6,837 nucleotides of DNA from Octopus sinensis. Taxonomy: Eukaryota. Under the pieces are notes generated by a model. That model had not been told where the DNA came from. It worked only from the letters and a program-made list of their open reading frames with translations, and made no database searches. This document shows, one piece after another, positions 561 through 3,501 of this stretch. The position numbers were made by a program, and so were the translations under genes. The stretch is from the NCBI RefSeq assembly GCF_006345805.1, contig NW_021829195.1, positions 1 to 6,837 of the forward strand, in the 5' to 3' direction. The stretch's first letter is position 1. The number at the start of each line of letters is the position of its first letter.

Positions 561-572
561 TTCGTCGAAGTC

Positions 573-579
573 GGACGTG
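573..579 (+). promoter_or_regulatory. DPE-like internal Pol II promoter motif GGACGTG
   Basis: Starts 12 nt inside the inferred 5' end and matches the DPE-type motif of LINE internal promoters such as Drosophila jockey. No clear Inr is seen at the expected distance. Confidence 0.4.
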
Positions 580-1010
580 TTTTTTTGGCGGAGAGTTCTT
601 GCTGCTTGATGTCATGTCTTTCGTCGTGAAATATTGAATTTTGAGGCACGACTACAGGTAGGCGTTTGTTGTATTTTTTTGAGGGCTTAGTGGAGTTTGT
701 TGCTCTGTATTTAATATTTTTTGGTGAGTAATAGACTCCACACTGCTCCAGACATTTGCCTGCCTGTGGCCGCCTATAAAAACTCACTTTGCAGTGAGAA
801 TTGTGTTTTTGAGGAGGCGTAGTCCCTCCGCAAAAATTAATTTGTTTGCTTCTGAAATTGTCTTTGTGTTTTCTACTGGATTTACCACGGAGTACCAAGG
901 TAGAAAGGACTAATTGTGCTGCGGTTGGATTTATTTTACCATTGTGAGAATTTTTTGGGGGCGTATTCGTCTTCGATAAATTGAGTGAATATTTTTCTCA
1001 CCTAATTATG

Positions 1011-1176
1011 AGGCGCAGGAGTGGCTGTGTGATAAGTAGCTTGTTTACCAACCACATGGTTCCGGGTTCAGTCCCACTGCGTGGCACCGTGGGCAAGTGT
1101 CTTCTACTATAGCCTCGGGCCGACCAAAGCCTTGTGAGTGGATTTGGTAGACGGAAACTGAAAGAAGCCTGTTGTA

Positions 1177-1218
<42 letters not shown>

Positions 1219-1431
1219 AGTGTTTGTGTGTCTGTGTTTGTCCCCCTAGCATTGCTTGACAACCGATGCTGGTGTGTTTATGTCCCTGTCACTTAGCGGT
1301 TCGGCAAAAGAGACCGATAGAATAAGTACTGGGCTTACAAAGAATAAGTCCCGGGGTCGAGTTGCTCGATTAAAGGCGGTGCTCCAGCATGGCCGCAGTC
1401 AAATGACTGAAACAAGTAAAAGAGAAAGAGA
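1011..1431 (+). mobile_element. Full-length tRNA-derived SINE (octopus-type) nested in the 5' UTR of the retroelement
   Basis: A-box-like TGGCTGTGTGA (1022-1032), B-box GGTTCAGTCCC (1065-1075), a CORE-like CCGTGGGCAAGTG segment, an internal (TA)n(TG)n tract, and the tail ...CAGCATGGCCGCAGTCAAATGACTGAAACAAGTAAAAGAG. Homologous pieces lie at 524-560, 3500-3794 and 3980-4171. No TSD found. Confidence 0.92.
1175..1218. repeat. (TA)n(TG)n microsatellite inside the SINE
   Basis: Seen directly. A shorter equivalent lies in the SINE copy at ~3641-3660. Confidence 0.95.
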
Positions 1432-1753
1432 ACTGTATTGTGCCTTGAAGAACTTTAAGAATTGTGAGAACTGCGATATAGGGGAGTGTTTTGCCTCCGA
1501 AGTTTGAACAATTTTTACCAATTTATACCAATTTTTGTGGAAGTTGTGTTCCAGTTGCGGCGTTCCGAGTTCAATTTAGGCCGGGAGTACCGAATGGCCT
1601 GAAGATTTTTTGCTGTGTTATTGACTTTCTTTTGAACATTATTTGATTTTCTCCTTTTTGTTTTCTTTTTCTTCTCGCTTTTTAAGTTTTATTTTGAATA
1701 TATTTAAAAAAAAACCCAAAAAACAAGGCAATGAAAAATGATAAAATTTTGGA

Positions 1754-2995
1754 ATGGGAGATTATACCGCCTAAAAAGTGGTTAAAGACCGTGAGGATAG
1801 GATGGTGGTGTTGAGAACCTACTCCAAGGCACTCGACACCATCGCCCTGTTCGAAAAGACGGCAATTGAAAAGGAGTTGGCAGAGTAATTGCCAACAATT
1901 AAATTCATTTCCAGGGGTGTCAGATATGCAACGGTGTGGTTGCTATTTGACACCCCTGAAGAGGCTTGCAAATTTGCCAGTAAATCCCTGGAGGGTAAGG
2001 AGATTTTATTCCTGCCCACGTATCATGGAAAGAGATTGACGAAAGCTTGGATCTGCGGGCTGCCACCCGGGATAAAACCCGAGTAGATAGAGGAGACTAT
2101 CCGCCGGGGTCTGGGTGACAGCGGAACTAAGCTTCTTAATGTGAAAGTTCTTCCTGCGGCTGTTTAGGTTGGGTCAAAAGCAATTTTGACCCTTTGGACC
2201 CAATCAGCCAATCTGGTTCTTCCAGATTTTTTGAAAATGGCCGGGTGCAGGTACCCGGTGATACTTGAGGGTCGTCCCCCTAGGTGTCATCGGTGCTTGG
2301 AGTCCGGCCATATAAAGAAAAACTGTCCCCGGGAACAAAATAAGATCCCGGAGCAGTTAAGTGAGACCTCTGTAGAAGAGGGAATGAAGACGGCCGAGGA
2401 AGCGGAGGACTCCTCAAACAGGGGCCGAAAGAGGAAGAAGGTGAGCAACAATGGGTGCTCACCAAAGGATACTAGGGATGAGGAGGGAAAGGCGAATCTT
2501 CCGGCCACGGAGGAGACGCACCCTCCCTCAGTTGAAAAGAAAAAAAAGAAAAAGAGGAAAAGAAACGGGACATTACCGGCAGTCGGTGACATAGTACTGG
2601 AATGTTCCGGAACTACGTCGGTTGGGGTTGTGCAACCGACAGGAGAAGGAACACCGTTGGCGGGAACTGTGCCGCCAACGAAAGAATTGAATATCCCGCA
2701 CCCGAGCAAAAACGATGTATTGATCTTCTTCCATAGAGGCGGAGAGATTGAAAAGGTGATGGAAAAGCACCACAAGGGAGCACCTTTAGCCTTCACACAG
2801 GACTCCGAATGGCCTCCGCAGGTAGCTATGGAGGCCGTGGCGTTCGACGTGACGCTTTGGCTGAAGGAGCTCAATGAGGGTTATAGCTTGTTCCCGGGCA
2901 ACGCTAACACGGAACTCGATTTGGTTCTGAGGGAGGCGTGGTGGATGGCAGAGGATGGGGCACAAGTTATTTTGAGGATGAGTCATAAATTGTGA
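1754..2995 (+). pseudogene. L1/Tx1-clade ORF1-like (gag-like) CCHC zinc-knuckle protein with 4 in-frame stops
   Basis: Track ORFs 1889-2086 and 2186-2995 share a frame that extends back to ATG 1754: MGDYTA*KVVKDREDRMVVLRTYSK...ELAE*LPTIKFISRG...PTYHGKRLTKAWICGLPPGIKPE*IEETIRRG...PAAV*VGSKAILTLW...RYPVILEGRPPRCHRCLESGHIKKNCP. Stops are at 1772, 1886, 2084 and 2165. The knuckle is a perfect C-x2-C-x4-H-x4-C preceded by GRPPR. Basic NLS-like runs RGRKRKKV and KKKKKKRKR follow. Confidence 0.85.
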
Positions 2996-3495
2996 CACTG
3001 TGTGACACAAACATGTGATAACAGGCACTTCGCTTTCCTTCTAAACCCCCAGCTGTCAACGTGGTCTGCTTTGCAGACGGCTAGATATTTGACTGGAGGT
3101 CCGGAAAGAGGAGGAAGGGAAAAGTGATAATGTATTTTTATGTTTGATAGGACATGTTTAGATACGACTTCCTAAGGGAAGTGTAAGCCAGGTCTGGGAG
3201 GAGGGGCTTTGTATATTGTATTTATATCATATGTAATTATTGAACTATGTTGTTGTTAGTAATGGACTGTTAAGTCCAAAAATTGAAAAGTTGTAAAAAT
3301 TGTAAGAGGTTTAATACCTCGTTTTGTGTTTGTTTTTAAAAGAACAATGTTTTAGAGAGGCAGAAGTCGGCGGGCGCTTTTTGTCTTCTCCCATCCTTAT
3401 CATCTTTCTTTCATTATTATTCATTTCATTAATGTCCTCGTCCAGCCCGCAAAGCCACTTTACTCTATGTACTGCCTTTATGGCAAATGTTATGA

Positions 3496-3501
3496 AATAA
3501 A
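3496..3501 (+). terminator. Polyadenylation signal AATAAA at the element 3' end
   Basis: AATAAA overlaps the right TSD copy by 2 nt. There is no poly(A) tail. Confidence 0.6.

Follow-up and report, generated by a model that had tools for sequence, protein, structure and literature searches.

An ORF1-only retroelement lineage of octopus with a fixed target in a SINE head and a likely L1/Tx1-type partner

The retroelement at positions 561-3499 of Octopus sinensis contig NW_021829195.1 is, with a probability that we put at about 85%, a decayed copy of an old lineage that carries only the first open reading frame (ORF1) of a long interspersed element (LINE). Its insertion site, in the head of a short interspersed element (SINE), is fixed, and a 5.4-kb LINE of the L1/Tx1 type likely provides the reverse transcriptase (RT) and endonuclease that copy and insert it in trans. 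The window analyzed is the entire 6,837-base sequence of this contig, from a genome of 2.72 Gb. An earlier note on this DNA had proposed an ORF1-only "half-LINE" family that moved as a gag-only unit. This proposal held: the family has many copies, no ORF2 accompanies them at the places sampled or survives as a relic in the window, and they do not form a single-copy host gene derivative.

A multicopy family without ORF2

A search with window positions 2700-3499 gave 2,281 candidates. Among the best 40, 27 other places match nearly end to end at 84-93% identity, bearing out the expectation of many copies with the same ORF1-to-3' layout and arguing against a single-copy pseudogene of a host ZCCHC gene. 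Queries taken from the 5' end and from the final 170 nt returned 523 and 1,946 candidates, respectively; these are search candidates and not copy numbers. ORF2 follows this ORF1 in none of 109 places, counted after removal of nine duplicate or overlapping loci and with ORF2 sought up to the next element end, and in 91 of them the end comes no more than 2,100 nt after the ORF1 start. None of 20 loci selected by their endonuclease carries this ORF1. The window copy is therefore not a one-off internal deletion in front of an apurinic/apyrimidinic endonuclease (APE) and RT. The claim that it leaves no room for ORF2 was confirmed, as positions 2978-3499 lack an ORF2 relic (best tblastn E 0.32 with six ORF2 queries).

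Full-length single inserts of all types (n = 83) are mostly 1.9-2.6 kb long. The unit has amplified with the marks of retrotransposition, namely target duplication, 5' truncation and a fixed 3' end, and the youngest copies of this lineage (half-elements) are 98-99% alike. They occupy internal SINE sites on many chromosomes, and neither the Jockey-clade origin nor the telomeric location of HeT-A was found. Family DNA is present in sequencing runs under four organism labels, among whose listed pieces none spans an element/SINE junction. No run listed as RNA carries the family; two runs that may be RNA hold family pieces, as contigs of uncertain type. Separately, many matches to the 5' end lie at a spacing of about 12 kb beside C2H2 zinc-finger frames in G000:C30:8.83-9.37 Mb (L079, L086, L087, L099), probably duplicated together with a tandem gene cluster.

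One position in a SINE head

Where do these elements insert? The lineage is site-specific, using one exact position in a tRNA-like SINE head. The target 16-mer, scored at 12 or more of 16 positions, follows 26 of 29 tail-selected loci and 28 of the 29 ORF1-selected loci whose end was found (30 loci, picked by a divergent ORF1 protein), while 95 of 20,000 random draws score as well. By exact pattern, 504 junctions are filled versus 52,602 sites that are empty, and reversed controls return none. The site lies directly after GGT, between motifs that we take to be A-box-like and B-box-like, so that each insertion parts the two promoter-like boxes of the SINE; about 1% of exact-match sites are filled. 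Of the first 90 of the 504 junctions, read on C1-C3, 48 belong to this lineage, 5 to other ORF1-only types, 16 to ORF2-bearing elements (9 with ORF1, endonuclease and RT, 7 as truncated ORF2 pieces) and 21 to tails without a protein match.

The earlier note bounded the element by a 16-bp target-site duplication (TSD). Near-identical 16-mers do stand at 545-560 and 3500-3515 (15/16, the single mismatch being at target position 13); they represent the fixed SINE-head site rather than a random duplication, and the true duplication measures about 9 bp. Independent TSDs among copies, also anticipated, do not occur because all copies share the one site. Target positions 1-9 are equal on the left and right in 78-82 of the 83 full-length copies and positions 10-16 in 38-68, with a 1-nt indel right behind position 9 in 19. 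For 36 copies in five 5'-end classes, positions 13-14 on the left always carry the allele of the class, also in all 12 copies whose recipient differs. Independent 16-bp TSDs are ruled out by the single shared site together with this class-bound allele. These patterns are most simply read as a duplication of about 9 bp followed by some 7 nt of inherited, target-like leader, which would place the 5' end of the window element near 554. Most clearly 5'-truncated copies carry duplications of 8-12 nt.

Against the genome's own tRNA-Lys, tRNA-Ala and tRNA-Thr genes the SINE head scores 48-49 (shuffle means 28-29, maxima 42-52), a weak likeness over 15 distinct tRNA genes, and neither ARAGORN nor Rfam calls a tRNA in it. 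As a candidate target, tRNA genes were rejected: the 15 distinct genes (30 loci, part of the tRNA set) align just loosely across the site. As a further observation, exact window-type tails are strand-skewed (37 forward versus 82 reverse; 37 versus 76), although the broader junction pattern is even (251 versus 253) and the tail skew may be a search artefact.

A two-ORF LINE at the same site

What might supply the missing enzymes? A two-ORF LINE of about 5.44 kb occupies the same SINE site. Its ORF1 precedes an ORF2 with APE, RT and a C-terminal zinc-binding domain (Exo_endo_phos, RVT_1 and zf-RVT), whose best solved relative is human L1 ORF2p (E 5e-57; R2, E 1e-20). The element thus belongs to the L1 group (L1/Tx1). 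Its ORF1 contains zf-CCHC (E 2e-5), which together with site-specific insertion is the Tx1 style; ORF1 variants with an RNA recognition motif (RRM) and zf-CCHC are associated with Tx1 in passages of PMC5203782. Membership of the Tx1 clade, over other L1-group clades, is likely, and none of the 120 listed RT relatives bears the name Tx1.

This LINE is young: the 30 top endonuclease matches to one copy have a mean identity of 98.8%, and L317 combines open frames of 488 and 1137 codons with the target and, behind it, an ORF1-only copy. Given the similarity among the youngest half-elements, both were active at about the same time, and at the 90 junctions read half-elements outnumber the LINE about 3 to 1 (48 versus 16). 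The autonomous LINE expected to share the last 100-200 nt therefore exists, but it shares the last 38 nt alone (82-84%); the L204 subfamily also shares the first 33 nt (85%). Remaining matches to the window element are of low complexity or within the nested SINE.

The common tail contains a 4-bp hairpin. Over 52 tails (51 non-redundant out of 88, plus the window), 90% of cells are paired, with 20 double-sided changes and covariation at 4 of 4 pairs; none of 500 shuffles reaches this score, and slid controls give 16-51%. Conservation is limited to this terminal hairpin, and the structured 3' region of about 500 nt claimed earlier was not recovered (z -0.78; 26 of 100 shuffles fold equally well). 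Among the 20 endonuclease-selected loci, readable 3' ends finish at the SINE site at 71-98% endonuclease identity and elsewhere at 59-66%. Taken together on sequence grounds, the 5.4-kb LINE is likely the helper that mobilizes half-elements in trans.

Other young two-ORF families (L300-L303, L305, L306, L308, L318), with an endonuclease 59-66% identical to that of the helper and open frames of 1,134-1,157 codons, have other 3' flanks. Downstream sequence is similar in L306 and L308, so these two may use a separate target. At window 1221-1245 the SINE body resembles the part of the helper 3' untranslated region (UTR) that directly precedes the hairpin (84-87% over 23-25 nt, E 0.047), possibly by chance in T/G-rich sequence.

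ORF1 and its selection

The single CCHC ORF1 described in the window is present, with one knuckle at 2285-2326 (zf-CCHC E 0.011, below the Pfam cut-off), but it is no longer an open frame: stops lie at 1886, 2084 and 2165 and, relative to an unbroken natural copy, frameshifts near 1785 and 2960. An intact example, L047, has 421 codons. The layout comprises two predicted RRM-like folds, the CCHC knuckle, a basic linker and a conserved C-terminal part; the RRM-like folds are assigned with low confidence, from an AlphaFold model of the N-terminal half (pLDDT 48) and Atlas leads. Pfam returns a weak zf-CCHC alone and not a HAL1-type ORF1. A homologue search yielded two proteins in total, both labelled octopus, and the named protein relatives come from Octopus and Argonauta. 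The annotated octopus proteins P0002 and P0003 contain this ORF1 type (the former at 62% over two thirds, the latter at 85% over a short piece that is joined to an integrase-domain model) and are probably gene models built on element copies.

Pairwise ratios of nonsynonymous to synonymous change (dN/dS) in ORF1 drop from 0.56 at dS <0.08 to 0.18 at dS >1 over 93 segments. For fixed differences among four subfamilies the ratio is 0.12-0.21 and for private changes 0.53 (Nei-Gojobori method without transition correction, on segments selected for long frames). ORF1 was therefore under purifying selection during the spread of the lineage, and copies decayed after insertion.

Lineage history, arrays and a chimeric 3' region

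Half-element and helper ORF1 proteins are homologous, aligning with 28% identity over 197 amino acids (E 3e-21). At so low an identity, the half-elements constitute an old separate lineage. A 43-row ORF1 tree unites all 20 half-element rows in a single clade (100/100), and about 1.7 changes per site separate it from the remaining 23 rows, among them every two-ORF element sampled; L229 enters twice, and the midpoint root implies no order of events. The SINE site also holds additional ORF1-only types, 1.4-2.5 kb long (L186, L195, L211, L216, L229, L085:7154-7927), whose ORF1s lie on the two-ORF side of the tree, from which it follows that the ORF1-only design arose more than once. Of these, L211 clusters with LINEs whose ends lie away from the SINE site. 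L314, a two-ORF element missing most of ORF2, has the same tail as some of these other types.

Since the target is regenerated at insertion, elements stack head to tail. Stacks with the 16-mer between elements occur at L071, L072, L076 and L078, and arrays mixing helper and half-elements occur in both orders (L255, L317). Seven older relatives still have, at the equivalent of window position 3158, a tail inside the element together with the target and 59 codons left over from an ORF1 C-terminus (E down to 3e-11). Two deletions have removed most of this sequence from the window copy. The 3' region of the window element is hence a fusion of two copies, likely formed by read-through.

The 5' ends are modular as well, having been exchanged between ORF1 subfamilies and the helper (e.g., L036, L047, L165, L187, L213). 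Several have a second internal target-like remnant 12-14 nt before a purine-GACG motif, and several carry GCGCATGCGC-like or CTTCCGG motifs, which we take to resemble NRF1 and ETS sites, respectively. The purine-GACG motif is what had been called a 5' end resembling a downstream promoter element (DPE). It is real and recurrent (63 of 83 5' ends versus 9.5% in shuffles), but in the window its distance from the inferred 5' end is about 20 nt. The canonical DPE spacing is +28, and the window motif, off that spacing, is a candidate promoter element.

Weighing the alternatives

Could an unsampled two-ORF LINE carry the same ORF1 type, the ORF1-only copies being its recurrent internal deletions? Internally deleted two-ORF elements do occur at the SINE site (L160, L314), and the ORF1 search scored the best 150 of 9,032 candidates, our searches generally covering the best 40-150. 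Opposed to this are the lack of ORF2 behind every one of the 109 ORF1 places, the absence of this ORF1 from the endonuclease-selected loci and from all nine full two-ORF junction copies, the isolation of the half-elements as a single clade, and the one ORF1-to-tail layout kept by subfamilies up to dS >1 apart. We regard such a LINE as improbable. Lower still is the chance that the SINE is not targeted at all, the element having been captured once and the composite of SINE head, insert and SINE body moving as a unit with the partner LINE of the SINE. That most copies have SINE on both flanks, and that the element brings along part of the left "TSD", would fit. However, right-hand targets within one 5'-end class stem from several SINE variants, 5'-truncated copies meet the SINE head at many element positions with duplications of 8-12 nt, unrelated inserts (a two-ORF LINE and other ORF1-only types) use the same site, and arrays hold several elements within one SINE. 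A family of processed pseudogenes of a host zinc-knuckle gene such as ZCCHC3 is recommended by Atlas look-alikes, which include clusters of the ZCCHC3 RNA-binding domain at a score of 0.91. The LINE's own ORF1, with which the half-element protein aligns, yields the same Atlas leads, and the many subfamilies with their own 5' UTRs, the want of poly(A) and the tail common to the LINE leave this idea largely refuted, with next to no weight in our assessment.

Several findings weigh against our preferred reading of an old, site-specific ORF1-only lineage served in trans by an L1/Tx1-type LINE. Ends scoring under 12/16 make up 3 of 29 tail-selected and 1 of 29 ORF1-selected loci. The junction census covers 90 of 504 junctions, all from C1-C3, and among the 109 ORF1 places 8 loci are too short and 10 have no tail in range. 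The shared tail is short (38 nt), as is its hairpin (4 bp); because this structure was chosen from the same related sequences, its controls are lenient and favor it. Private pN/pS is 0.53 and not 1, by a method that ignores transition bias and on segments picked for long frames. Lastly, a few 5'-truncated or internally deleted copies (L031, L217, L237) carry the full 16 nt on the left, and the top-strand cut may thus lie beyond 9 nt.

Proposed mechanism

How might a half-element move? The structure, site, common tail, selection, arrays and chimera seen here suggest the following model for its promoter use, ORF1 function and trans-mobilization. Transcription would start from the half-element's own 5' end, likely by RNA polymerase II, and the ORF1 protein would package its own RNA, which would account for the selection on ORF1. 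The helper ORF2 protein would then bind the terminal hairpin, nick the SINE just past the GGT, which resembles that of a D-loop, and prime reverse transcription there, the first two A's of the target overlapping the A-rich RNA end at priming. The 5' join would be made about 9 nt into the target, aided by the target-like leader of about 7 nt. With the target persisting on both sides, later insertions could build head-to-tail arrays, and read-through of these would exchange 3' tails, as in the ancestry of the window copy. The helper role was probably handed on among successive SINE-targeting two-ORF subfamilies. Target-primed reverse transcription with hairpin recognition and packaging by the element's own ORF1 are suggested here by analogy with general LINE biology. 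In passages of the literature, target choice is set mainly by the endonuclease (PMC4494074), and ORF1-only proteins likely multimerize with those of the partner (PMC5786205).

More speculatively, half-elements and the SINE-targeting LINE might form a long-lived partnership like that of HeT-A and TART, spread over thousands of dispersed SINE heads in place of telomeres. A separate ORF1 would be kept for capturing or assisting the helper ORF2 protein, a short target copy would be inherited as a 5' leader, and arrays would swap 5' promoters and 3' tails between lineages. We hold this possibility as doubtful.

Relation to known elements

HAL1 has a poly(A) tail and a loose T-rich target. HeT-A forms mixed head-to-tail arrays and carries short inherited 5' tags, two points of likeness to the octopus lineage. 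Passages of PMC5753468 describe HAL1 as a non-autonomous L1-group derivative that codes for ORF1p alone and has multiple origins. The octopus lineage is like it in being ORF1-only, and its site likewise hosts separately arisen ORF1-only types; it differs in its CCHC-knuckle ORF1, the absence of a poly(A) tail, the covarying tail hairpin and site-specific insertion. The mammalian type of ORF1 has a coiled coil, an RRM and a C-terminal domain and no knuckle (PMC5203782, in part). HeT-A is ORF1-only and Jockey-derived, is grouped with HAL1 and Ag-Sponge, and has a protein thought to multimerize with that of its autonomous partner (passages of PMC5786205). HeT-A (with TART/TAHRE) thus resembles the octopus lineage in being ORF1-only. 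Unlike HeT-A, which adds to chromosome ends, the octopus lineage is of the L1/Tx1 type, sits in dispersed internal SINE copies and duplicates its target. Ag-Sponge, a CR1-derived ORF1-only non-autonomous LINE of Anopheles (same source, in part), also has ORF1 and is non-autonomous, and it belongs to another clade.

Among Tx1-clade elements, passages of PMC4494074 list insertion of Tx1L into Tx1D, Keno into U2 and Tx1-Mar into Mariner-N4_AMi, as well as SINEU, which shares the Tx1-Mar target and is taken as mobilized by Tx1-Mar. Such elements, too, are L1-group LINEs with a sequence target, some of them inside other transposons. The targets named in those passages are DNA transposons, long terminal repeat elements, small nuclear RNA and 5S genes, satellites and microsatellites, and not a SINE head. 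SINEU is non-coding, whereas the non-autonomous member in octopus is a protein-coding element of 2-2.5 kb. Our search, which lay outside most subscription papers, Repbase Reports, supplements and Repbase/Dfam, found neither a Tx1-type family limited to ORF1 nor a LINE with a fixed target in a SINE head described in print. An octopus repeat annotation (PMC13282606) reports, in the passages covered, 13 recently active L1-Tx1 families; "ORF1", "target" and "non-autonomous" were not found in its main text as far as covered, and its supplements or library may hold these families. A term search of the available text of PMC8869645 gave no "SINE" passage. The ORF1-only design (HAL1/HeT-A) and Tx1-style targeting of transposons are thus already known; their combination at a SINE site appears new within the literature covered.

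Why does this matter? To the three ORF1-only designs listed in the passages cited, HAL1 (L1), HeT-A (Jockey) and Ag-Sponge (CR1), the octopus lineage adds a site-specific case of the L1/Tx1 type. The likely helper and its parasite share no more than a 38-nt tail, their ORF1s are 28% alike, and young copies with open frames exist for both. They make testable the question of why a non-autonomous element retains ORF1, and whether this protein serves its own RNA or the partner element. With its more than 50,000 target copies outside genes, the helper is predicted to encode a natural APE endonuclease of new sequence specificity.

Anatomy of the window and its surroundings

The window copy has been split by a nested SINE, as the earlier note recognized from the sequence; excluding this SINE, the 5' UTR measures about 750 nt, close to the 770 nt given there. 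Positions 525-560 match 1014-1049 of the nested SINE at 86%. The reported terminal AATAAA is present at 3496-3501 but straddles the junction, its last two A's being the first two target bases. The window element has no poly(A) tail, and family ends run directly into the target. Table 1 lists the features.

Table 1. Parts of the window element and of the SINE that received it
Feature	Positions	Strand	Basis or remark
Recipient SINE 5' head, A-box-like part	525..544	+	Separated from SINE body by the insertion
True TSD, left copy, about 9 bp	545..553	+	Positions 1-9 equal right copy in 78-82/83 full-length copies
Target-like leader, likely element-borne; fills out apparent 16-bp TSD	554..560	+	Left allele tracks 5'-end class in 12/12 informative copies; 1-nt indels after position 9 in 19/83
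5' UTR part one, purine-GACG motif at 573-579	561..1010	+	564-596 85% identical to 5' end of two-ORF subfamily L204
Nested SINE, complete, same family as recipient SINE, later insertion	1011..1431	+	Sister copies run from 1010 directly into 1432
5' UTR part two	1432..1727	+	Sister copies align at 87-93%
ORF1	1728..2988	+	421 amino acids in unbroken copies such as L047; broken in window by 3 stops and 2 frameshifts
Beginning of own 3' UTR of window ORF1	2989..3158	+	In seven older copies sequence goes on here into first tail and target
3' part from second, 5'-truncated ORF1-only copy (ORF1 C-terminal relic and 3' UTR), reduced by two deletions	3159..3499	+	L061-L066 and L068 retain internal tail, target and frame similar to C-termini of sibling ORF1s (E down to 3e-11)
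Tail common to two-ORF LINE (82-84%), 4-bp hairpin at 3473-3485	3463..3499	+	
Target, right copy; recipient SINE restarts	3500..3515	+	
Recipient SINE body, B-box-like part onward	3516..3780	+	83-84% to nested SINE

The only Rfam matches on window 400-4200 were four below threshold. Elsewhere in the window, another partial SINE copy lies at 4001-4172 (74-79% to the nested SINE), and a GC-richer tract between microsatellites at 4786-5170 resembles another repeat. At positions 6665-6743, two perfectly inverted 33-nt arms enclose a 13-nt spacer; this is likely a small DNA element.

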